Assembly: GCF_036507355.1 (NCBI RefSeq)
Contig: NZ_AP027877.1
Source: Escherichia coli
GTDB taxonomy: Bacteria; Pseudomonadota; Gammaproteobacteria; Enterobacterales; Enterobacteriaceae
DNA length: 64,000 nt
Reading direction: 5' to 3' (one strand)
Shown here in pieces: positions 13,059-54,286 of the stretch. The position numbers were made by a program, and so were the translations under genes. The stretch's first letter is position 1; every line of letters begins with the position of its first letter. The notes under the pieces were generated by a model. The model did no database searches. It saw only the letters and a program-made list of their open reading frames with translations, and was not told the origin of the DNA.

Positions 13059-14708
13059 TTAACCGCGCCACGCTTTATAGCGGTTAATCAGACCATTGGT
13101 CGAGCTATCGTGGCTGCTGATTTCTTTATCATCTTTCAGCTCTGGCAGAATACGGTTCGCCAGTTGTTTACCCAGCTCCACGCCCCACTGGTCGAAGGTG
13201 AAGATGTTCAGGATCACGCCCTGAGTAAAGATTTTGTGCTCATACAGCGCAATCAACGCACCCAGGCTGAACGGAGTGATTTCACGCAGCAGGATGGAGT
13301 TGGTCGGGCGGTTACCTTCGAACACTTTGAACGGCACCACGTAGTCAAGCGTTGCCGGATCTTTACCCTGATCGCGATATTCCTGCTCAACCACTTCGCG
13401 GGATTTACCAAACGCCAGCGCTTCGGTCTGAGCAAAGAAGTTAGACAGCAGTTTCTGGTGATGATCAGAGAGCGGGTTATGGGTGATAGCCGGGGCGATG
13501 AAATCGCACGGTACCATTTTGGTTCCCTGATGGATCAGCTGGTAGAACGCGTGCTGACCGTTAGTGCCTGGTTCACCCCAGATAATCGGGCCAGTCTGGT
13601 AATCCACAACGTTACCGTTACGGTCAACATACTTACCGTTGGACTCCATATTGCCCTGCTGGAAGTACGCCGCAAAACGGTGCATATACTGGTCATACGG
13701 CAGAATCGCTTCAGTTTCCGCACCAAAGAAATTGTTGTACCAGATGCCAATCAGCGCCAGCAAGACAGGCAGGTTTTTCTCGGCAGGCGTGGTGGAGAAA
13801 TGCTTGTCCATCGCGTGTGCGCCAGAAAGCAGTTCAACGAAGTTATCAAAGCCGATGGAGAGAACAATCGACAGGCCAATCGCTGACCACAAAGAGTAAC
13901 GGCCGCCGACCCAGTCCCAGAACTCGAACATGTTGGCAGTATCAATACCAAACTCGCCAACGGCTTTGGCATTGGTTGAGAGCGCCGCAAAGTGTTTCGC
14001 AACGTGTTTTTCATCACCTGCCGCTTTCAGGAACCAGTCACGCGCGCTATGGGCGTTGGTCATGGTTTCCTGAGTGGTGAAGGTTTTAGATGCTACCAGG
14101 AACAGCGTGGTTTCCGGGTTTACTTTTTTCAGCACTTCCGCGATATGAGTCCCATCGACGTTAGAAACAAAGTGCATGTTCAGGTGATTTTTGTACGGAC
14201 GCAGTGCTTCGGTCACCATGTACGGGCCGAGGTCAGAACCACCGATCCCGATGTTCACTACGTCAGTGATTGCTTTGCCGGTATAACCCTTCCACTCACC
14301 GGAAATAATCGCTTCCGAGAAGGTTTTCATCTTCTCCAGCACCGCGTTGACTTCCGGCATTACGTCTTTGCCATCAACCAGAATCGGGGTATTGCTACGG
14401 TTACGCAGCGCTACGTGCAGCACGGCGCGGTTTTCAGTGCGGTTGATCTTCTCGCCAGAGAACATCGACTTAATCGCGCCCGCCAGATCGCACTCTTTCG
14501 CCAGATCTTGTAATTTCGCCAGCGTCTCTTCAGTGATGCGGTTTTTGGAGTAATCCACCAGCATCTGATCGTCGAAGGTTGCGGAGAACTTAGAAAAACG
14601 ATCGCCGTCTTTAGCAAAAAGATCGGCGATCGTAACGTCTTTCATTTCATCGAAGTGTTTCTGTAGTGCCTGCCAGGCAGCGGTCTGCGTTGGATTGATG
14701 TTTTTCAT
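13059..14708 (-). CDS. pgi: glucose-6-phosphate isomerase Pgi (549 aa)
   Basis: ORF 13059..14714; [31 protein letters not shown]...; start at ATG two codons inside ORF-track start. Confidence 0.97.
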
Positions 14709-14949
14709 TAGCAATACTCTTCTGATTTTGAGAATTGTGACTTTGGAAGATTGTAGCGCCAGTCACAGAAAAATGTGATGGTTTTAGTGCCGTTAGCGTA
14801 ATGTTGAGTGTAAACCCTTAGCGCAGTGAAGCATTTATTAGCTGAACTACTGACCGCCAGGAGTGGATGAAAAATCCGCATGACCCCGTCGTTGACAACC
14901 GCCCCGCTCACCCTTTATTTATAAATGTACTACCTGCGCTAGCGCAGGC

Positions 14950-15232: not shown

Positions 15233-16582
15233 ATGTCTGAAATTGTTGTCTCCAAATTTGGCGGTACCAGCGTAGCTGATTTTGACGCCATGAACCGCAG
15301 CGCTGATATTGTGCTTTCTGATGCCAACGTGCGTTTAGTTGTCCTCTCGGCTTCTGCTGGTATCACTAATCTGCTGGTCGCTTTAGCTGAAGGGCTGGAA
15401 CCTGGCGAGCGATTCGAAAAACTCGACGCTATTCGCAACATCCAGTTTGCCATTCTGGAACGTCTGCGTTACCCGAACGTTATCCGTGAAGAGATTGAAC
15501 GTCTGCTGGAGAACATTACTGTTCTGGCAGAAGCGGCGGCGCTGGCAACGTCTCCGGCGCTGACAGATGAACTGGTCAGCCACGGCGAGCTGATGTCGAC
15601 CCTGCTGTTTGTCGAGATCCTGCGCGAACGCGATGTTCAGGCACAGTGGTTTGATGTACGTAAAGTGATGCGTACCAACGACCGATTTGGTCGTGCAGAG
15701 CCAGATGTAGCCGCGCTGGCGGAACTGGCCGCGCTGCAGCTGCTCCCACGCCTCAATGAAGGCTTAGTGATCACCCAGGGATTTATCGGTAGCGAAAATA
15801 AAGGTCGTACAACGACGCTTGGCCGTGGAGGCAGCGATTATACGGCAGCCTTGCTGGCGGAGGCTTTACACGCATCTCGTGTTGATATCTGGACCGACGT
15901 CCCGGGCATCTACACCACCGATCCACGCGTGGTTTCCGCAGCAAAACGCATTGATGAAATCGCGTTTGCCGAAGCAGCAGAGATGGCAACTTTTGGTGCA
16001 AAAGTACTGCATCCGGCAACATTGCTACCCGCAGTACGCAGCGATATCCCGGTCTTTGTCGGCTCCAGCAAAGACCCACGCGCAGGTGGTACGCTGGTGT
16101 GCAATAAAACTGAAAATCCGCCGCTGTTCCGCGCGCTGGCGCTTCGTCGCAATCAGACTCTGCTCACTTTGCACAGCCTGAATATGCTGCATTCTCGCGG
16201 CTTCCTCGCGGAAGTTTTCGGCATCCTCGCGCGGCATAATATTTCGGTAGACTTAATCACCACGTCAGAAGTGAGCGTGGCATTAACCCTTGATACCACC
16301 GGTTCAACCTCCACTGGCGATACGTTGCTGACGCAATCTCTGCTGATGGAGCTTTCCGCACTGTGCCGGGTGGAGGTGGAAGAAGGTCTGGCGCTGGTCG
16401 CGTTGATTGGCAATGACCTGTCAAAAGCCTGCGGCGTTGGCAAAGAGGTGTTCGGCGTACTGGAACCGTTCAACATTCGCATGATTTGTTACGGCGCATC
16501 CAGCCATAACCTGTGCTTCCTGGTGCCCGGCGAAGATGCCGAGCAGGTGGTGCAGAAGCTGCATTTTAATTTGTTTGAGTAA
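15233..16582 (+). CDS. lysC: lysine-sensitive aspartokinase III LysC (449 aa)
   Basis: ORF track; MSEIVVSKFGGTSVADFDAMNRSADIVLSDANVRLVVLSASAGITN... Confidence 0.98.
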   Translation: MSEIVVSKFGGTSVADFDAMNRSADIVLSDANVRLVVLSASAGITNLLVALAEGLEPGERFEKLDAIRNIQFAILERLRYPNVIREEIERLLENITVLAEAAALATSPALTDELVSHGELMSTLLFVEILRERDVQAQWFDVRKVMRTNDRFGRAEPDVAALAELAALQLLPRLNEGLVITQGFIGSENKGRTTTLGRGGSDYTAALLAEALHASRVDIWTDVPGIYTTDPRVVSAAKRIDEIAFAEAAEMATFGAKVLHPATLLPAVRSDIPVFVGSSKDPRAGGTLVCNKTENPPLFRALALRRNQTLLTLHSLNMLHSRGFLAEVFGILARHNISVDLITTSEVSVALTLDTTGSTSTGDTLLTQSLLMELSALCRVEVEEGLALVALIGNDLSKACGVGKEVFGVLEPFNIRMICYGASSHNLCFLVPGEDAEQVVQKLHFNLFE

Positions 16583-16726
16583 TATTTCCCTACTGGCGTA
16601 TAACGCTCACCAATTGTTATACGCCATCCTCACTGAAAACATAGATTAAATAATATCTGAAAAGCAAAATCACTCCTGTAGAACAGTATTATAACCACCG
16701 AAAAATATCATTTAACAGGAGTGTTA

Positions 16727-17656
16727 ATGGCTACTTTAATGGAAAAGGATGCACTTTTAAACGGCGCCAGTCAGTGCATCGCGTTTTTATCAAATATCGT
16801 CGACAGTTGTTTTTCCTCACAAGTTCAGGACTCAGACGATGAGCTATCACAATTAGTCAGCTATCGCGACAATCTTTATTCCACTCCAGCAGAAATTGTT
16901 GATTTTACACAGGGAATGTTACGCCTCCAGCAGGTCAGAAAAAAGTATCAGCGTGAATTTAATAATACTGCGCATTCAGAAAATAAAGCGTCTTTTGATT
17001 CTATTTGGCAGCGTCTGACAAACCATGACGTCACATCCCAGCAGAGTCCCATTGGTTTTGTTTTAGGTGGACAACCAGGAGCCGGAAAATCCATCCTAAT
17101 CGAATTAGCAAAAAGGGAAACAAAGAATAATATAATGATTATTAATGGTGATGATTTCAGATTTCTACACCCTGATTTTAATTATATATATCAAACTTAT
17201 GGCGACGATTTTGTTACCCATACGGCAAAATTTTCCGGCGAAACGGTCGAACGTGCAATAGAGAGGGCCATAGCCAATAAACTCAATATTGTTGTCGAAG
17301 GAACATTTCGTAATGCCGCTACGCCGCTACAAACATTAAAAAAACTCAAAGATGCAGGCTACCGAACAGAAGTCATGATAAAAACCACCTCAGCGGCATT
17401 AAGCTGGGAAAGCACCAACGAACGGTATAATAAGGACAAAGAGGCGGGAAATATCGCCCGCAAAGTGGATAAAAATCACCATGATATCGTCACCGATTTG
17501 CTAGCAGAAAATGCCAGCAAGGTGTTTGCTTCAAACCTGGCAGATAAGTTTGCGGTGTATTCGCGTGAGAAGATGATATTTAGTTCACAAGCGGCAACCA
17601 ATTGCGATATTGCAACGCTTATACAAAATGAAATCAGCGGAAGTGCACAAGAATAA
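16727..17656 (+). CDS. zeta-toxin-family P-loop kinase with ~100-aa N-terminal extension (EzeT-like single-chain toxin/antitoxin candidate)
   Basis: ORF 16721..17656; ATG at 16727 preceded by AGGAG; Walker A GGQPGAGKS followed by motifs resembling zeta/PezT UDP-GlcNAc kinases (INGDDFR..HP, EGTFR); AT-rich codon usage; not part of the K-12 lysC-yjbD arrangement as I recall it. Confidence 0.7.
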   Translation: MATLMEKDALLNGASQCIAFLSNIVDSCFSSQVQDSDDELSQLVSYRDNLYSTPAEIVDFTQGMLRLQQVRKKYQREFNNTAHSENKASFDSIWQRLTNHDVTSQQSPIGFVLGGQPGAGKSILIELAKRETKNNIMIINGDDFRFLHPDFNYIYQTYGDDFVTHTAKFSGETVERAIERAIANKLNIVVEGTFRNAATPLQTLKKLKDAGYRTEVMIKTTSAALSWESTNERYNKDKEAGNIARKVDKNHHDIVTDLLAENASKVFASNLADKFAVYSREKMIFSSQAATNCDIATLIQNEISGSAQE

Positions 17657-17688
17657 TAAAAGCTGATGACCTGAAATAACGCCGGGCA

Positions 17689-18489
17689 TCACGCCCGGCG
17701 CATTACCGTCTGGTACAGTAAGCTATCCAGTTTCTTAACGTCCCCTTCTCTACTATCCGGTAACACAGGCGGAATTTCCCCACGCGCCAGTTCCGCATGG
17801 ATAAACGCATGTAGCAATGGACGGCGTGGGCCATATTCCGCTTCACCCGCACGCTGTTTACGTTCCAGTAATTCATCTATTTCTGCGCGTAAGGCCGCAT
17901 CCAACTCACTTCCCGCCAGCAATTCGGAAAAACGCATTGGCGGTACGCCTTTTCCCGCTTCAACCCAACGCACGGCCAGCAACGGACGCAGCACGTAAAA
18001 GTATTTTTTCAGTCGAACTTCATCGCCCTGCAAATATCCGCGGAAGTTTTTCTGCGCCATCGAATAGTAATGCCAGCGCGCACGCAGCGGAGAAAACCAC
18101 GTTGGGACCATTGCCTTAAGCGCCGTTATCGTTTCTTCATCTTGTTGATAGACCACCGGAGAATCCAGCCATTCTATCAGCGTCGGGTTCGCGCCTTTCA
18201 ATAATCCCAGCGCCTTACGCCACTCCCAACCGGAAACATCTAACTCGTCGTCGATGGGCAGCTCAATAACATCGCGCGGTGACTCTACTCGCAGATACCA
18301 TTCCAGCGGGTGAACATACAAAAACCGTACATCGTAGTCGCTGTCGGGCGAGGCAAATCCCCAACCGCGACTCCCCGATTCACAGGCGTACAGTACTTTC
18401 ACATCATACCGCCGTTCAATTTCTTTTAACTGCTGCGATACCCTTTCGCGCATCGCAGCACTGACTCCATTTAATGGCATGTTACTCAC
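17689..18489 (-). CDS. Pol-beta-superfamily nucleotidyltransferase (266 aa), uncharacterised
   Basis: ORF track; ESGSRGWGFASPDSDYDVRFLY = GS-x9-DxD nucleotidyltransferase motif; start overlaps stop of upstream SPFH gene by 4 bp. Confidence 0.7.
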   Translation of the reverse strand: MSNMPLNGVSAAMRERVSQQLKEIERRYDVKVLYACESGSRGWGFASPDSDYDVRFLYVHPLEWYLRVESPRDVIELPIDDELDVSGWEWRKALGLLKGANPTLIEWLDSPVVYQQDEETITALKAMVPTWFSPLRARWHYYSMAQKNFRGYLQGDEVRLKKYFYVLRPLLAVRWVEAGKGVPPMRFSELLAGSELDAALRAEIDELLERKQRAGEAEYGPRRPLLHAFIHAELARGEIPPVLPDSREGDVKKLDSLLYQTVMRRA

Positions 18490-19613
18490 CCTTTGATATT
18501 AACCAACCCGTGCAGAACCTGATCCAGACCGCCAAATACAGAGATGTTATCAATCCGCTCAGCCACTCTCTCCAGCGTTTCCAGCTCTTTTAAACGCAAC
18601 GCTACCGGATTGTTCTCCATGACTTTGGCGGTGTTCAGTAACGAGCGCGTCGCTGCCGTTTCTTCACGTCGGCGAATCACATTCGCCTGCGCAGATTTCT
18701 CTGCCTCAACCAGCTGCGCAAGGATATTTTTCATATCGCCAGGCAGGACGATATCTTTCACCCCTAATGAAGCAATCTCCATACCGAACGGCTTCATGCG
18801 CGATTTCACCTGTTCGCTGACAACGTCATCAATGACCTGTTTATCTTCCAGCAATTCATCCAGCGTACGCGTACCTACCACTTCACGCAGTGCAAATTGC
18901 AATTCCCGATACAAATGATCAATCGGCTTCGTTAACTGACTAAATGCTAATAACACGTCGCTGTAGCGCCAGTTAGCCGCGAGGTTAATCCGCAGATTGA
19001 CCTTATCTTTCGTTAAGATTTCTTGCCCGCTGACTTCCAGTACCTGCAAGCGGGTGTCAACCACTTCAGCTTCAACCAGATGGTTAATTTTCCAGTACGC
19101 GGTAAGCCCCGGCGGTAACAGCGCCTGCGTTTCACCATCGATTTTCAGCACGCCTACATGCCAGGCCGGAACCTGCACCGTCAGTATCGCATCGCGGCCT
19201 TTAACAACTCCTTTGCGCCGTGGCTGTAATACCGCATTCATCACCTCCGTTTGTACCGGGACTTGCTGCGTATTCATCCGCACCAGCGTCAAATCATCCT
19301 CTACACGCCAGTACAAACGACGCGTTGATGGCGGCAGGATCTCCAACAAAATACCGTCCATATACAACACCCCGGCTTCAGTCTCCGACAAGTCTGCCAC
19401 CAGGCAATATTTCTCCACCCAATCAGGCTGAAAGCGGCGCAAATAATCCGCAAGCACGTCGGGAACTTCGCTACCATCCAGCGTAATCAGCAACACTTCC
19501 GGGGTATTTAACCAGGGTAAAATATGCTCGCCTGCATGCAGCACTTTGTAGTAATCGCCGTTTCTGGAGAGTAATGCCAGCTGATCTTTTCTTACGCTTA
19601 TTTTTTTAATCAT
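18486..19613 (-). CDS. SPFH/band-7 (stomatin/flotillin-like) domain protein without obvious N-terminal TM helix (375 aa)
   Basis: ORF track; C-terminal half has band-7 hallmarks (GMEIASLGVKDIVLPGDMKNILAQLVEAEKSAQANVIRRREETAA...LRLKELETLERVAERI); hydrophilic N-terminus. Confidence 0.7.
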   Translation of the reverse strand: MIKKISVRKDQLALLSRNGDYYKVLHAGEHILPWLNTPEVLLITLDGSEVPDVLADYLRRFQPDWVEKYCLVADLSETEAGVLYMDGILLEILPPSTRRLYWRVEDDLTLVRMNTQQVPVQTEVMNAVLQPRRKGVVKGRDAILTVQVPAWHVGVLKIDGETQALLPPGLTAYWKINHLVEAEVVDTRLQVLEVSGQEILTKDKVNLRINLAANWRYSDVLLAFSQLTKPIDHLYRELQFALREVVGTRTLDELLEDKQVIDDVVSEQVKSRMKPFGMEIASLGVKDIVLPGDMKNILAQLVEAEKSAQANVIRRREETAATRSLLNTAKVMENNPVALRLKELETLERVAERIDNISVFGGLDQVLHGLVNIKG

Positions 19614-20141
19614 TATCTATTCCTTGCTTAATAGCCGTCGCGGAAGCAGACACGAAGCGACAGGGGAATTCCCTTTTGCCTGTTACCCGGCATCTTTATC
19701 GGCGACGTTATCGGGGACCGCAGACTGCGCAATCCCTCATTTTTTATTTAATAAGTTACAACCAGTATTCATTTCAGGAATGAATGTGGGAATCGAACCC
19801 GTAATTGGCGTCAAAGGCTGATGGAACACGCCCGGAAAACAGCCTGGCCGTTCCTGGTGTGCCGACGGGGTTTAACCCCCTTTGTAATTCAGTATCAACG
19901 CAAAAGTGTTATTGCGAGAAGCGTGCCAGAAGTGATAAAAAATTTTAATTACATGAAAAATAAAGATTTAATAAATCATTATTGTTTGTAGGGGGAGATT
20001 TTTTCGCTAAATTTGTATCTGTATTTATCGTCAATTATCAAGAAAGATAAATATTTAAGAAGAGAACAAAGGAATATTATCAGTTCTGCTTGCAAATAAA
20101 TTCCCGTACACTGAACTATCCGATTAACAGAGGGCACCATC

Positions 20142-20414
20142 ATGGCACTCCCCCGTATTACTCAAAAAGAGATGACTGAGCGTGAACAGCGCGAACTGAA
20201 GACGCTGCTGGATCGCGCGCGTATTGCACATGGTCGCGTGCTGACCAACGCCGAAACCAACAGCATTAAGAAAGAGTACATCGATAAATTAATGGTCGAG
20301 CGTGAGGCTGAAGCGAAAAAAGCCCGCCAGTTAAAGAAAAAGCAGGCTTATAAACCGGATCCTGAAGCGTCATTTAGCTGGTCAGCAAATACGTCGACGC
20401 GCGGCAGGCGCTGA
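20142..20414 (+). CDS. yjbD: DUF3811 protein YjbD (90 aa)
   Basis: ORF track; MALPRITQKEMTEREQRELKTLLDRARIAHGRVL... Confidence 0.85.
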   Translation: MALPRITQKEMTEREQRELKTLLDRARIAHGRVLTNAETNSIKKEYIDKLMVEREAEAKKARQLKKKQAYKPDPEASFSWSANTSTRGRR

Positions 20415-21287
20415 TTAGCGCCCCTTCTTTTTACGCCCCGGCGAGGTAAAACGCTTACCGTTGGACGCCGGGCGACCGCCTTTTTCCGCCGTTTTTTCCA
20501 TCTTAACGACTGGACGTTTGATGCCCGCCGTTTTCGGTTTAGCCTTCGCTTTAGGTTTTGCCTCGGAAGAGGAATTTTCAATGAGCTTAAAGAGGTCGAT
20601 TAACTCATCGTCGGTTAAATCGCGCCACTCCCCCAGTGGAATGCCGTTTAAGCTGACGTTCATAATGCGCGTACGTTCCAGCTTTTTCACTTCATAGCCG
20701 AAATGCTCGCACATGCGCCGGATCTGACGGTTCAGCCCCTGCACCAGGGTAATGCGGAAGACAAACGGCGCTTCTTTTTTGACTTTGCACTTTTTAGTCA
20801 CCGTCCCGAGGATCGGCACCCCCGCCCCCATACCACGAATAAATTCATCGGTAATCGGTTTATCGACCGTCACCAGATACTCTTTCTCATGATCGTTACC
20901 CGCACGGAGGATCTTATTCACCAGATCGCCGTGATTGGTGAGGAAAATCAGCCCCTGGGAGTCTTTATCCAGGCGGCCAATCGGGAACACGCGTTTGCTG
21001 TGGTTAACAAAATCGACAATGTTATCGCGCTCGCCATCTTCGGTGGTGCTGACAATACCGACGGGTTTGTTCAGGGCGATAAGTACCAAATCTTCGGCTT
21101 CCCGAGGCTCAATCAACTGACCGTTTACTTTCACAACGTCGCCGGGTTTCACCTGATCGCCAATGGTGGCTCGCTTGCCATTAAGGAACACATTGCCTTG
21201 CTCGATATAGCGATCCGCTTCGCGGCGTGAGCAAATTCCGCTTTCGCTGATGTATTTATTTAAACGGACTGATGAGTCGGGCAGCAT
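20415..21287 (-). CDS. rluF: 23S rRNA pseudouridine synthase RluF (290 aa)
   Basis: ORF track; S4 domain plus RluA/RsuA catalytic motif ([22 protein letters not shown]); Lys-rich C-tail. Confidence 0.93.
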
Positions 21288-21634
21288 AAATTCTCCTGTA
21301 AAACGCGGAATATACCGTACCTCTTAGCGGGGAAAAACAGGGTTATGCGGCAACGTCGAAATTAAATGTGATCTGCCACGCCTTTTATCACAAAAGTGTC
21401 TCCGGAAGTACAATGCAAATTTGCCTGGCAAAATAAGGATAATCAACATATTACGAATCGCTGCACACCTGTGCTGATGACTACTGCGCAGAGAAACAAA
21501 TGTGCAAGAGAAAGCGCTATTTCTCCCCATGCAAAGAGTGAAAAATCGCTTTGAAAGGCCATCATGATGGGGTTATATCAGATCAAGCGGTGAGAAAGCG
21601 TATTTGCACAAATGTGCAGAACCAGGAGGCGGCA

Positions 21635-22582
21635 ATGGAAAACAGTGACGATATCCGTTTGATTGTGAAGATTGCCCAACTCTATTACGAACAGGATATG
21701 ACGCAGGCGCAAATCGCGCGCGAACTGGGTATTTACCGCACCACCATCAGCCGCTTGCTTAAACGAGGCCGCGATCAGGGAATTGTCACCATCGCCATCA
21801 ACTATGACTACAACGAAAATCTCTGGCTCGAGCAGCAACTGAAGCAAAAGTTTGGCCTGAAAGACGTTGTGGTGGTGTCGGGAAATGATGAGGATGAAGA
21901 GACTCAACTGGCGATGATGGGGTTACACGGCGCGCAACTGCTGGATCGCTTGCTGGAGCCTGGCGATATTGTCGGTTTTTCCTGGGGTCGCGCGGTGAGC
22001 GCACTGGTTGAAAACTTGCCGCAAGCGGGGCAATCGCGGCAGTTAATCTGCGTGCCAATTATTGGCGGACCGTCCGGTAAACTCGAAAGCCGCTATCACG
22101 TAAACACATTAACCTACAGCGCGGCAGCGAAGCTGAAAGGGGAATCGCATCTCGCGGATTTTCCGGCTCTGCTGGATAACCCCTTAATTCGTAATGGGAT
22201 CATGCAGTCTCAGCACTTTAAAACCATCTCTGCCTACTGGGATAATCTGGATGTCGCCCTGGTGGGAATTGGCTCACCGGCCATTCGCGACGGCGCTAAC
22301 TGGCATACGTTTTATGGTGGTGAAGAGAGTGACGACCTGAATGCCCGCCAGGTTGCTGGCGATATTTGCTCGCGCTTTTTTGATATTCACGGCGCAATGG
22401 TTGAAACGAATATGAGCGAAAAAACACTCTCTATCGAAATGAATAAATTAAAGCAGGCACGATATTCAATTGGCATTGCCATGAGTGAAGAAAAATACAG
22501 CGGAATTATTGGTGCACTGTGTGGAAAATATATTAATTGTCTGGTAACGAATAGCAGCACAGCTGAACTATTACTGAAATAA
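21635..22582 (+). CDS. sorC: SorC-family transcriptional regulator of the sorbose operon (315 aa)
   Basis: ORF 21551..22582; start taken at MENSDDIRLIVKIAQLYYEQDMTQAQIARELGIYRTTISRLLKRG (HTH) preceded by AGGAGG; C-terminal sugar-binding domain. Confidence 0.85.
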   Translation: MENSDDIRLIVKIAQLYYEQDMTQAQIARELGIYRTTISRLLKRGRDQGIVTIAINYDYNENLWLEQQLKQKFGLKDVVVVSGNDEDEETQLAMMGLHGAQLLDRLLEPGDIVGFSWGRAVSALVENLPQAGQSRQLICVPIIGGPSGKLESRYHVNTLTYSAAAKLKGESHLADFPALLDNPLIRNGIMQSQHFKTISAYWDNLDVALVGIGSPAIRDGANWHTFYGGEESDDLNARQVAGDICSRFFDIHGAMVETNMSEKTLSIEMNKLKQARYSIGIAMSEEKYSGIIGALCGKYINCLVTNSSTAELLLK

Positions 22583-38326: not shown

Positions 38327-39928
38327 TTACGCTAACAGGCGATAGCCTGGCAGGGTCAGGAAATCAATTAACTCATCGGAAGTGGTGATCTGTTCCATCA
38401 AGCGTGCGGCATCGTCAAAACGCCCCTGGGAGAAACGTTCTGCGCCCAGTTCGCTGGCAATGACTTTCATCTCTTCGCCCAGCATCTGGCGGAACAAGGC
38501 TTTAGTTACCGGTTTGCCATTGCTCAACATTTTTTGATGATGGATCCACTGCCAGATCGAGGTACGGGAAATTTCAGCCGTCGCCGCATCTTCCATCAGG
38601 CCATAAATCGGCACACAGCCGTTGCCAGAGATCCACGCTTCGATGTACTGCACGGCTACGCGAATATTTGCGCGCATACCTTCTTCGGTGCGTTCACCGT
38701 CACAAGGTGCCAGTAGCTGATCGGCAGTAATCGGCGCGTCTTGTTCGCGCATCACTTCAAGCTGATTTTTACGGGAGCCGAGAATGTCGTTGAATACCGC
38801 CATTGCCGTATCCGCAAGGCCTGGGTGAGCGATCCATGTGCCATCGTGACCGTTATTGGCTTCCAGCGATTTATCCGCTTTTACTTTGTTGAGCACCTGG
38901 TTATTGTGCTCTTCATCTTTGCTCGGAATAAACGCCGCCATGCCGCCCATCGCAAAAGCACCGCGTTTATGGCAGGTTTTAATCAACAGGCGTGAGTAAG
39001 CATTCAGGAATGGTTTATCCATCGTTACTGCCTGTCTGTCTGGCAGGACGCGATCGGGATAGTTTTTCAACGTTTTGATATAGCTGAAGATGTAATCCCA
39101 ACGACCGCAGTTCAGACCAACAATATGGTCACGCAGCGCGTGAAGGATTTCATCCATCTGGAACACGGCGGGCAGCGTTTCAATCAGCAACGTCGCCTTG
39201 ATGGTGCCGCGCGGCAGATTAAAGCGATCTTCTGCATAGCTGAAGACTTCGCTCCACCAGGCCGCTTCCTGCCAGGACTGGGTTTTCGGCAGATAGAAAT
39301 AGGGACCACTGCCCTTTGCCAACAGTGCCTGATAGTTGTGGAAGAAATAGAGCGCAAAATCAAACAGGCTGCCGGGGATTGCCTCACCACGCCAGGTGAC
39401 ATGTTTTTCCGGCAAGTGCAGACCGCGTACCCGACAAATCAAAACCGCTGGATTGGGCTTGAGCTGGTAAATTTTGCCTGCTTCATTCGTGTAACTGATG
39501 GTGCCGTTAACCGCATCGCGCAGGTTAATTTGCCCGTCGATCACTTTGTTCCAGTCTGGTGCCAGTGAATCTTCGAAATCGGCCATAAAGACTTTCACAT
39601 TGGCGTTCAGTGCGTTGATCACCATCTTGCGCTCAACCGGGCCAGTTATCTCGACTCGACGATCTTGTAAGTCCGCGGGAATACCACGAATTTTCCAGTC
39701 TGTATCGCGAATGGAAGCTGTTTCCGAAATAAAATCAGGCAACGTTCCGTTATCAATATCTTGCTGCTGCTGAATGCGCGCTGCCAGAAGTTTATTGCGT
39801 TGTGGCGTAAAATGCGTCACCAGCTCAGTCAGAAATTCTACCGCTTCGGCAGTAAGAATTTGCTTCTCCTGCTCGCCATACGGCCTTATGAAAGCCAGTT
39901 CATCGGTTGTTGTTGCCTGTTCAGTCAT
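38327..39928 (-). CDS. aceB: malate synthase A AceB (533 aa)
   Basis: ORF 38327..39946; start taken at [13 protein letters not shown]; aceBAK promoter/IclR-site region lies upstream (~39930-40130). Confidence 0.97.
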
Positions 39929-52991: not shown

Positions 52992-54270
52992 TGGAGCACC
53001 TCAAAAACACCATCATACACTAAATCAGTAAGTTGGCAGCATCACCGCTGATCTGCCGCAATTCCCTTACCGCTGTCGGTAACGCTGATTTTCACGCCCG
53101 CGCCGCTTTCGCTGGCCGTCACGCTAATCACGCCATGCTGACCAATCGCCTGAATAGCATTGAGATAGAGATTCAACAGGACCTGAGTCAGCCTGTCCGG
53201 ATCGGCCTGAATTTCCGGTAATGTGTCGTTGGCGGTAAAGCGTAACTGGATCTCCCGGCTGTTTGCATCCTGGCTTACCAGCTGTAATGAGTGGTTAATC
53301 AGAGTGTTGAGGTCCACCGCCTGCAAAGCCAGATGCGTTGGCTTAACCAGTTCCAGCAGCTCGCTTACCACGCGGTTTAATCGGTCAGCTTCTTTCGCCA
53401 TCACCTGCGCCAGTTGATGCGCTTCTCCCCCTGCAGGCGCGCGCTCGGCAAAGTATTTCGCCAGTCCTTTAATCGAGGAAAGTGGGTTACGGATTTCGTG
53501 GGCAACGCCTGCCGCAAGATGCCCCAGCGCCACCAGCTTCTCTTTGCGCTTCATTTCATCTTGTAGAAGCTGGCGCGAGCGCAGATAGCGGCGATACCAG
53601 AAGAATGACAATACGCTTGCCAGCAAGACCGTCGCCAGGGCGAAGAGGATAATCAGGGTGTTTCTCTGCTCACGATCTTCGGCACTCACAATATTACTGG
53701 CGTCGAAAGCGATGAAAATTGCTTGTGGTGTCGCGGCATACTGCTGCATATGGCGCATCCGGTGCATTCCAGCAGCAAACATCGGTTGAAACTGGCGATA
53801 AATTTCCAGAACAGGCTCGCCGTCTGCGCTATCGATCCGCCGCCACACTTCTTCATCTCCCGGATGTAACTGCTGCATTTCCTGCGGGGAATAAAGCTGT
53901 TTTCCCACCATGCCGGAGTTGCTATGCATCACGATTGTTCCTTGTTCATCCGTGACCGCAAACCAACGTACTCCAGGCTGCCCGGCTATTTCTTCCAGTA
54001 AGGCCTGCTGCTGCGCATGATGCATGCGCATCCCCATGCCGACGCGCGAGCCGGATTCAAGAGCGCGAATAAGTACACTGCCTTTTTCCAGCAGCGTTTG
54101 TCTGGCGGCGGCAGTCTCGCGCCCATAATCGCGAATCACCGTCACCGCAAACAACCCTACCAGCCCAACAATGACCACGGGGAGGATCGCGCTTAACCAT
54201 TTAGCTAAGGAGTCTTTAGAACGTTGCATAAAACGCATCTTCTTCTTTGCCTGTTCATCCCTTTTTACCA

Positions 54271-54286
54271 GCAGAAATCATGCCAT
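54271..54286 (-). promoter_or_regulatory. sigma54 (-24/-12) promoter of zraSR
   Basis: Minus strand TGGCAT-N6-TGCT with GG/GC spaced as in the TGGCAC-N5-TTGCA consensus. Confidence 0.65.

Follow-up and report, generated by a model that had tools for sequence, protein, structure and literature searches.

The region between lysC and yjbD of Escherichia coli was analyzed in a stretch of 64,000 nucleotides of contig NZ_AP027877.1 (NCBI RefSeq assembly GCF_036507355.1), referred to here as the window. The two genes enclose a segment without counterpart in K-12, which holds ezeT, encoding a single-chain zeta toxin-antitoxin protein, and, convergent to it, a gene for a soluble SPFH/Band-7 protein followed by rlaP, encoding an RNA nucleotidyltransferase. 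With a probability of about 0.7, this segment consists of two independent modules, EzeT and a reduced RNA-repair operon, and is not one three-gene unit. The SPFH-rlaP operon is probably a ligase-less, regulator-less variant of a predicted RNA-repair system, the complete proteobacterial form of which would comprise a divergent rtcR gene, a sigma-54 promoter, a tRNA-like RNA and the genes for SPFH, rtcB and rlaP. In E. coli, this arrangement has likely been stripped of rtcR and rtcB. The features on which the argument draws are the following.

16583..20011, segment without K-12 counterpart (BLAST of the K-12 lysC-yjbD region against the window, and genome counts)
16727..17656, plus strand, ezeT, single-chain zeta toxin-antitoxin, 309 residues (Pfam, structure matches, identity to EzeT)
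17689..18480, minus strand, rlaP, PF10127 Pol-beta-superfamily RNA nucleotidyltransferase, 263 residues from ATG (Pfam, motif, orthologues)
18486..19613, minus strand, gene for a soluble SPFH/Band-7 ("slipin") protein, 375 residues (Pfam, AlphaFold model, Foldseek)
19630..19743, minus strand, leader RNA domain 2, hairpin and long interrupted stem (RNAalifold on 12 enterobacterial sequences)
19755..19901, minus strand, leader RNA domain 1, element like a band 7-associated tRNA (covariation, T-loop, covariance model R1)
19913..19928, minus strand, sigma-54 promoter with -24/-12 elements, TGGCACGCTTCTCGCA (positional conservation)
20016..20050, minus strand, RtcR-type upstream activator-like site, TTATCT-N5-GATAAT-N3-CGATA-N5-AGATA (composite motif match)

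Homologous loci in other species

A scan of one genome per species, with alignment of 30 cluster representatives, yielded 80 SPFH loci. Among 1.8 billion representatives of 50% clusters, 545 SPFH families, many of them full-length, were matched at an E value of 1e-30 or better; a separate homologue search with the SPFH protein returned near-identical E. coli entries only. SPFH orthologues in the operons of other species showed 42-83% identity. In many of these loci, a gene of ~1.2 kb between SPFH and rlaP was identified as rtcB, and the divergent upstream gene was identified as rtcR (832 and 851 bits, compared with an NCBIfam cut-off of 650). Order and spacing were fixed over the loci, with divergent rtcR followed by the promoter, one or more T-loops, SPFH, rtcB and, in some loci, rlaP. 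The rtcR/SPFH/rtcB arrangement was found in Enterobacterales, Pseudomonas, Burkholderia and many beta-proteobacteria, and ~40 proteobacterial loci have the promoter, the RNA and the SPFH gene in common within the order rtcR, RNA-SPFH-rtcB(-rlaP). In 32 of the 80 other-species loci, an orthologue of RlaP (49-86% identity) is encoded downstream of SPFH, whether or not rtcB is also there, and rlaP directly follows SPFH in E. coli and five other genera.

An RtcB-less form that retains rtcR recurs in Citrobacter, Pseudocitrobacter, Superficieibacter, Mangrovibacter and Hafnia. No SPFH-type rtcR or rtcB was present at the lysC-yjbD locus in any of 5,426 complete E. coli genomes, the set to which all E. 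coli counts given here refer. The best E. coli coverage of an Enterobacter probe was of a two-piece, rtcB-less form, with homology beginning just upstream of the promoter. In the window, yjbD occupies the place that rtcR has in other genera; of the attributes of an Rtc-type operon, the sigma-54 promoter and the upstream site are present, and a divergent rtcR and rtcB are absent.

As cited in bioRxiv 10.1101/312249, the prediction of Burroughs and Aravind (2016) was that in some cases RtcB is encoded next to a Band-7 protein and a "band 7-associated tRNA", abbreviated b7a-tRNA, the existence of which "has not been validated experimentally". The Pseudomonas aeruginosa SPFH protein PaFlo8 has been described as "embedded within the rtc locus" (PMC13086221). 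A separate observation concerns Gilliamella sp. wkB308, in which an identical locus of rtcR, tRNA-like RNA, SPFH gene (product of ~520 residues) and rtcB is present on three contigs (L031, L032 and L033); the repetition suggests a multi-copy element in that genome.

Promoter and upstream activator-like site

Thirteen aligned enterobacterial regions upstream of SPFH contain an invariant TGGCACG-N4-T.GCA block, and a sigma-54 pattern was found upstream of SPFH at a fixed position in 44 of the 80 loci. The promoter of the window is nearly identical to the K-12 rtcBA promoter, TGGCACGACGGTTGCA (TGGCACG-N4-T.GCAAT). Given that a loose sigma-54 pattern alone is not rare and occurs by chance (three matches in the window, compared with 0.8 expected), the assignment rests on the fixed position in the 44 loci. 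The other two loose matches are located at 38828-38843 and 54270-54285 (minus strand). A scan for sigma-70 promoters returned fewer sites than expected by chance and none serving the genes of the segment.

The composite motif at 20016-20050, a putative RtcR binding site, lies 122 nt upstream of the -24 element and is an exact match found once in 64 kb, with 0 expected. Across loci, this motif takes the form TTATCC-N5-GATAAA-N3-CGATA-N5-AGATAA and abuts the rtcR start codon. It was observed 131-148 nt upstream of the promoter, with four mismatches or fewer, in 31 of 42 scored loci, compared with 8-11 mismatches in shuffled sequences; one further scored locus has it at -112. The rtcBA promoter uses an RtcR upstream site and an integration host factor site together with sigma-54 (PMC9650030, PMC7790460).

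Leader RNA

The ~300-nt leader upstream of the SPFH gene has no RefSeq annotation and no Rfam family. Its structure was revealed solely by comparative analysis; a single-sequence fold of the tRNA-like region was no more stable than that of shuffled sequences (z -0.44). Domain 1 is predicted to fold into a five-base-pair stem around a short hairpin and a long bulged hairpin, followed by a T-arm and then another hairpin. A tRNA-type T-loop, GGTTCGATTCC, is located at 19789-19799 on the minus strand, in the context GGGTTCGATTCCC upstream of SPFH, and in 55 of the 80 loci the motif GGTTCGAnTCC precedes SPFH by 180-440 nt on the same strand, often in two copies ~75 nt apart. Over the 29 pairs of domain 1, 95% of alignment cells were paired, compared with 41-50% in slid controls, and compensatory changes were observed in 18 pairs; none of 500 shuffles matched the observed values.

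Domain 2 carries the conserved motifs GCCGGUAA..GAUGCCGGG, CAGGCAAAA and UUCCCCUG.CGCUUCG and ends ~20 nt before the SPFH start codon. Here, 90.7% of cells were paired over 28 pairs (33-50% in slid controls), with compensatory changes in 19 pairs and, again, no match to the observed values in 500 shuffles. Covariance model R1 gave a single match in the window at 116.7 bits and also recognized Providencia and beta-proteobacterial loci, whereas R2 gave a single match at 122.9 bits and also recognized Xenorhabdus, Providencia and, weakly, Snodgrassella. Neither model matched the K-12 lysC-yjbD locus, and R2 did not match the canonical rtcBA locus.

With regard to the criteria for a b7a-tRNA, the RNA is encoded next to a Band-7/SPFH gene on the same strand and has a structure with compensatory changes. 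It does not resemble the cloverleaf of an authentic tRNA and is tRNA-like in its T-arm only. ARAGORN and the Rfam tRNA model do call tRNAs at the same position in Pseudomonas, Burkholderia, Gilliamella and other loci, some of them with aberrant anticodon loops; in the enterobacterial SPFH loci, neither program called a tRNA upstream of SPFH. An earlier, sequence-only reading of this DNA had stated that no tRNA was visible, which is correct for canonical tRNAs (ARAGORN, Rfam) and needs amendment for the T-loop. A different configuration was observed in three beta- or gamma-proteobacterial loci (L038, L066 and L069), where SPFH lies beside arrays of 7-16 ordinary-looking tRNA genes with many anticodons; in L038 and L069, an rtcB-like match is upstream of SPFH, not downstream.

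SPFH and RlaP proteins

The SPFH protein matches Pfam Band_7 (PF01145) over residues 147-318 (E 1e-24), and its sequence matches to solved structures are stomatin, HflK and QmcA. The AlphaFold model (pLDDT, the predicted confidence score, 84) comprises a beta-rich N-terminal region (residues 1 to ~180), the SPFH domain and long C-terminal helices. Foldseek searches with this model returned stomatin, HflK/C, prohibitin, erlin, QmcA and the major vault protein (MVP), the last over more than 400 columns. No transmembrane segment was detected in the protein (maximum 19-residue Kyte-Doolittle mean of 1.0). The hallmarks of membrane SPFH proteins, an N-terminal anchor and an NfeD partner gene, are lacking: the N terminus is all-beta in the model, and there is no NfeD-like open reading frame (ORF).

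RlaP shows a full-length match to PF10127 (E 1e-96; residues 13-259 of 266 aligned to model positions 1-248 of 249) and contains the nucleotidyltransferase motif GS...DSDYD. Two starts can be considered for rlaP: GTG 18489, with which the 4-bp start/stop overlap proposed in the sequence-only reading is obtained, and ATG 18480, the RefSeq choice, with which the overlap gives way to a 5-nt gap. No solved structure matched RlaP by sequence. A December 2025 preprint reports that two Pseudomonas RlaP enzymes add 1-2 nucleotides to RNA 3'-OH ends, that damaged RNA is preferred and that repaired tRNA regains aminoacylation (PMC12776372). An RNA-ligase gene in the same operon, from which the name RlaP derives, was found neither in the segment nor at the lysC-yjbD locus in any E. 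coli genome; such a gene is co-operonic with rlaP in orthologous loci of other genera.

Two E. coli haplotypes of the segment were compared. Synonymous divergence (dS) was 0.18-0.44 across the three genes, compared with 0.035 for the 3' end of lysC. At a dS of ~0.18, the ratio of nonsynonymous to synonymous divergence (dN/dS) was 0.07 for SPFH and 0.09 for rlaP. Given these ratios, SPFH and rlaP are judged to be maintained under purifying selection and not decaying. A hairpin at the end of the operon provides its probable terminator.

17680..17700, minus strand, hairpin with a G+C stem of 8 bp, CGCCGGGC/GCCCGGCG, probable SPFH-rlaP terminator (read from the sequence)

This hairpin overlaps the rlaP stop codon and is followed by UUAUUU after the stem on the minus strand; a sub-threshold Rfam alignment at the same position is terminator-like in its 3' part. 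It marks the boundary between ezeT and rlaP, which is also the breakpoint of the genomes that lack ezeT.

Occurrence in E. coli and history of the locus

In the window, the gene order is pgi (13059-14714, minus strand), lysC (15233-16582, plus strand), the three intact ORFs, yjbD (20142-20414, plus strand) and rluF (20415-21287, minus strand). In K-12 MG1655, lysC and yjbD are 252 bp apart. Pairwise BLAST showed that K-12 homology stops at the lysC stop codon and resumes at 20012, with junctions at 16582/16583 and 20011/20012, between which K-12 has 122 bp of unrelated sequence and the window 3,429 bp. BLAST identity to K-12 is 98% for lysC and just 89% for yjbD. These data agree with the sequence-only reading in its description of a ~3.5-kb gap where K-12 has a short spacer, and the families to which it had assigned the three ORFs are those returned by Pfam (Zeta_toxin, Band_7 and RlaP).

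The whole segment, scored as present when at least 80% of 16400-20300 was covered, was found in 1,424 of the E. coli genomes; the intergenic region upstream of SPFH was found in 1,631 and the ezeT part in 1,433. Found in 26-30% of the complete genomes, the segment is accessory. Its presence or absence is a genuine polymorphism, and K-12 is not a lone oddity; universal presence with K-12 as the sole exception, an outcome that had been envisaged beforehand, does not describe the data. No integrase or insertion sequence was present among the ORFs of the segment, and a search for direct and inverted repeats found none at its boundaries, in accordance with what had been noted earlier from the letters. 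The hallmarks of a mobile island (an integrase or transposase, flanking direct repeats and a tRNA-gene target) are thus not seen. The zeta gene had been called AT-rich in codon usage, and the G+C content of ezeT is low, 0.41 compared with 0.52 for the window. The description of the whole interval 19614-20141 as strongly AT-rich applies to its promoter-containing part, 19913-20060 (G+C 0.26), and fails for the ~300 nt proximal to SPFH, 19614-19912 (0.48), which encode the structured RNA.

The operon occupies the same lysC/yjbD site in six genera, Kosakonia, Enterobacter, Siccibacter, Citrobacter, Pluralibacter and Pseudocitrobacter. The order rtcR - SPFH - (rtcB) - rlaP - lysC was observed in the last five of these, with pgi after lysC where the fetched locus extends far enough. 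On the other flank, Kosakonia and Siccibacter have rluF - yjbD - rtcR, with a gene for a PanS-like transporter between yjbD and rtcR in Siccibacter. Given the lysC/yjbD flanks in six genera, the operon can be assigned to one chromosomal site across the family.

K-12 lacks the promoter, the RNA and the operon genes, and the region upstream of its yjbD contains a relic of the upstream site with three mismatches (35 nt, TTATCTCTTTCGATAATTAATTAGAGATGCAGATA, within L001:1806-1845). In other genera, this composite motif belongs to the rtcR-SPFH intergenic region, 2.8 kb from yjbD. Since the relic has been kept while the operon is gone, the K-12 state is interpreted as a deletion derivative; the motif implies that K-12 once had the operon and lost it. 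From the common site in six genera and the K-12 relic, the polymorphism would be mainly one of differential deletion, with the insertion of ezeT in addition. The suggestion that the promoter region had been acquired horizontally, by a mechanism that was unclear, is not sustained by the same two results. In the K-12 spacer, a candidate trace of leader domain 2 (22 of 26 positions matching window 19680-19705, collinear and in the correct orientation) was considered and is not claimed: with a score of 36 it falls inside the shuffle range of 32 ± 4, and R2 was silent. The solid relic is that of the upstream site.

A further hairpin was noted at the lysC end of the segment, 13 nt past the stop codon and with no U-tract after its stem.

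16595..16625, plus strand, hairpin GGCGTATAAC-N11-GTTATACGCC, likely lysC terminator stem (read from the sequence)

Beyond rluF, the window encodes a SorC-type sugar-binding regulator at 21551-22582, and close relatives have a short-chain dehydrogenase/reductase gene and mannose/sorbose-type phosphotransferase system genes after it. In K-12, pepE directly follows rluF, so that the block beyond rluF represents a second accessory block adjoining the segment.

The ezeT module

The protein encoded by ezeT has an N-terminal region of ~100 residues, the cis-antitoxin, and a C-terminal zeta-type kinase domain with the P-loop GQPGAGKS. It matches Pfam Zeta_toxin (PF06414) over residues 104-284 (E 2e-40), and the nearest solved structures are PezT (E 3e-32) and zeta (E 3e-27). 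It is 89% identical to, and collinear with, WP_000212693.1 over all 308 residues, a protein annotated at the same lysC-adjacent position in an O111:H8 genome. A 2023 review names WP_000212693.1 as EzeT and mentions that, in B1 strains of E. coli, homologues of lysC had been reported close to EzeT (PMC10532202). The E. coli EzeT is a UDP-N-acetylglucosamine kinase of the zeta type that carries its antitoxin in cis, as an N-terminal fusion (PMC4826407). The window gene, which had been put forward as unrecognized, is by sequence EzeT, already characterized and already reported adjoining lysC. By analogy with the 89%-identical orthologue, its UDP-N-acetylglucosamine kinase activity would be quenched in cis. 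No separate epsilon/PezA gene precedes ezeT, and the 144-bp spacer contains no ORF of 50 residues or more. The likely start is ATG 16727, behind AGGAG, rather than GTG 16721. Between the two haplotypes, ezeT is the most diverged of the three genes (dS 0.44 and dN/dS 0.14 relative to the O111 (B1) allele).

In other species, ezeT was present at none of the 80 SPFH loci. Within E. coli, ~200 genomes have the SPFH intergenic region and lack ezeT; in the two of these that were sampled (H9 and H97), homology breaks at ~17674. The place of ezeT in the window corresponds to a lysC-rlaP spacer of ~50 bp in other genera. Given its G+C content of 0.41 and its restriction to Escherichia at the lysC-rlaP site, ezeT is the only part that looks like a true insertion, into a short convergent lysC-rlaP spacer.

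Three additional observations were made at this position. An imperfect inverted repeat, CACTCCTG...CAGGAGTG at 16671-16690 and 16704-16723, would place the Shine-Dalgarno sequence of ezeT in a stem with a stretch upstream of it and could control ezeT translation. In E. coli W4 (NZ_CP163132.1, L086:24528-40281), the lysC-rlaP spacer holds a phage-tail cluster of ~15.7 kb and no ezeT; the cluster encodes a Mor activator, holin, transglycosylase, sheath, tube, tape measure, baseplate and fiber, no capsid or integrase genes are among its annotations, and it looks tailocin-like. Finally, in NZ_CP026085.1 (H94), a record named E. coli DH5alpha, ezeT and rlaP adjoin lysC with ~92.5% identity; K-12 MG1655 has neither gene, and the DH5alpha label may be wrong.

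Proposed working and alternative explanations

In response to RNA damage, which it senses, RtcR switches on sigma-54 promoters (PMC7790460, PMC9650030). In E. coli, RNA damage would activate the RtcR encoded elsewhere, at the canonical rtcR-rtcBA locus; in 4,838 of the 5,426 genomes, coverage of canonical rtcR-rtcB was 80% or more. RtcR would then bind the retained upstream site and fire the sigma-54 promoter, and the transcript would supply the tRNA-like RNA, the soluble SPFH protein and RlaP. A scaffold would arise by oligomerization of the SPFH protein, by analogy with Ro and Y RNA, RlaP would add 1-2 nucleotides to damaged RNA 3' ends, and ligation would fall to RtcB in trans. EzeT would stand apart as an autonomous one-gene toxin-antitoxin element, its zeta kinase held inactive by its own fused N-terminal antitoxin. 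A more specific proposal, advanced only tentatively and with the odds against it, is that the leader is processed into a stable noncoding RNA that joins a membrane-less SPFH cage in a ribonucleoprotein (RNP) resembling Ro/Y RNA or the vault and presenting damaged tRNAs to RlaP and to RtcB in trans. If this were true, ~30% of natural E. coli would have a minimal form, lacking ligase and regulator and connected in trans to the canonical RtcR, and a genetically tractable model would be at hand for a bacterial RNP that has never been validated.

Several observations weigh against the interpretation of the operon as a reduced RNA-repair system under RtcR control. The RtcR-type site of the window is ~10 nt nearer to the promoter than in other loci, and the K-12 rtcBA upstream region fits the composite motif weakly (six mismatches), with a different spacing around a common TATCC...CGATA core. 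The canonical RtcR is just 62% identical to an SPFH-linked RtcR, which weakens the case for activation in trans. Searches of 16400-20300 with Rfam (E up to 1) and ARAGORN returned no RNA family and no tRNA, and the T-stem of the window allele contains a C.A mismatch. Deletion of the P. aeruginosa SPFH gene (PaFlo8) was without phenotype in the assays tried. Finally, ~70% of E. coli genomes have lost the operon, and its benefit is therefore conditional at best.

Some of these points would be expected if SPFH-rlaP in E. coli were a non-functional remnant, with a silent promoter and with genes decaying after the loss of rtcR and rtcB. The T-stem mismatch, the PaFlo8 result, the absence of the operon from ~70% of genomes and the lack of rtcR and rtcB at the locus in every E. 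coli genome all fit such a history. It is nonetheless considered improbable, given that the ORFs are intact in both haplotypes compared, with the low dN/dS values reported above, that SPFH and RlaP are annotated as intact proteins in every sampled genome, that the promoter and activator motif are fully preserved and the RNA pairs maintained, and that RtcB-less versions recur in five other genera. A harder case to decide is whether the ~300-nt region is a purely cis-acting 5' leader of SPFH, serving processing, stability, translational control or as a decoy substrate, without any separate RNA partner. The region lies between promoter and start codon, and domain 2 ends ~20 nt from the ribosome-binding site; there is no terminator between the RNA and the SPFH gene, and the leader RNA could therefore be just a 5' untranslated region. 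On the other side, the units at that position in Pseudomonas, Gilliamella and others score as genuine tRNAs (RF00005 38-64 bits; ARAGORN). Units of this tRNA-like kind are normally cut out by RNase P and RNase Z. Moreover, the Salmonella analogue has Y RNAs inside its rsr-yrlBA-rtcBA operon (PMC7790460). These arguments come from other species and bear on E. coli by analogy, and the cis-acting leader is accordingly retained as a serious, if minority, possibility.

A joint function of all three genes as one anti-phage or stress system, in which sensing or scaffolding would fall to the SPFH protein, signaling to the nucleotidyltransferase and killing of the infected cell to the zeta kinase, is regarded as very improbable. 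The genes are adjacent and accessory, and ezeT accompanies SPFH-rlaP in ~88% of E. coli carriers. Toxin-antitoxin genes and SPFH proteins also occur in defense islands. Set against this, PADLOC returned no family for SPFH, RlaP or YjbD, and for EzeT only a match of E 0.0012 on 50 P-loop residues. The orientation of ezeT, convergent to SPFH-rlaP, and its absence from all 80 other-species loci, in which SPFH keeps its linkage to rtcR, rtcB and rlaP, likewise speak for separate modules. EzeT is self-contained, with its antitoxin in cis, and the nucleotidyltransferase is RlaP, an RNA 3'-tailing enzyme (PMC12776372) and not a signaling nucleotidyltransferase. The sequence-only reading, which had placed the genes in a single three-gene islet with stress or defense content, is thus retained with respect to the accessory status, the absence from K-12 and the stress-related content, which consists of a toxin-antitoxin gene and RNA-repair genes. 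The single islet is abandoned, in view also of the ~200 E. coli genomes without ezeT, as is the defense role, for which PADLOC gave no significant match.

Significance and comparison with known systems

The Band-7/SPFH branch of bacterial RNA repair and its tRNA-like RNA were predicted in 2016, with no experimental validation reported (bioRxiv 10.1101/312249). A stripped version consisting of promoter, RNA, SPFH and RlaP is carried by ~30% of E. coli isolates, including B1 and Shiga toxin-producing lineages, and K-12 provides a natural null background for SPFH and RNA function and for RtcR control of a second, unlinked promoter. Under the labels "slipin family protein" and, for RlaP, "nucleotidyltransferase domain-containing protein", an RNA-repair module goes unrecognized, and in more than 1,600 complete genomes the annotation lacks a conserved structured RNA of ~300 nt. 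The locus also illustrates how a region that looks inserted by comparison with K-12 can be ancestral and deleted in K-12.

With respect to the EzeT described by Rocker and Meinhart (2015), the window protein is alike in its 89% full-length match, two-domain layout, P-loop and place after lysC, and differs in that its allele has diverged from the B1/O111 allele (dS 0.44). The Band-7/SPFH - b7a-tRNA - RtcB - RlaP operons have SPFH and RlaP orthologues, the sigma-54 promoter, the upstream motif, the position of the RNA and the T-loop in common with the window locus, which differs from them in having neither rtcB nor rtcR. Compared with the b7a-tRNA, the window RNA has just the T-arm of a tRNA, plus a second domain specific to Enterobacterales. 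The Salmonella rsr-yrlBA-rtcBA operon (PMC7790460) is also controlled by RtcR and sigma-54 and likewise combines a non-enzymatic scaffold, a tRNA-like noncoding RNA and RNA-repair enzymes. There, however, the scaffold is a Ro/TROVE protein, whereas in the window it is an SPFH protein; in the window, the RNA precedes the protein gene, and RtcA and RtcB are absent.

The canonical E. coli rtcR-rtcBA locus (malT-glpR region) has a very similar sigma-54 promoter but no SPFH, RlaP or structured leader, and it probably supplies RtcR and RtcB in trans. At the level of fold, HflK/C, QmcA-YbbJ, stomatin and MVP have in common with the window protein an SPFH domain followed by long helices; the alignment with MVP is the one of more than 400 columns, and both proteins have beta-rich or beta-repeat modules before the SPFH "shoulder". 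In summary, EzeT is the part of the segment that is already known, and the other two genes, with their promoter, activator-like site and unannotated RNA, probably make up a ligase- and regulator-less variant of a predicted RNA-repair system.

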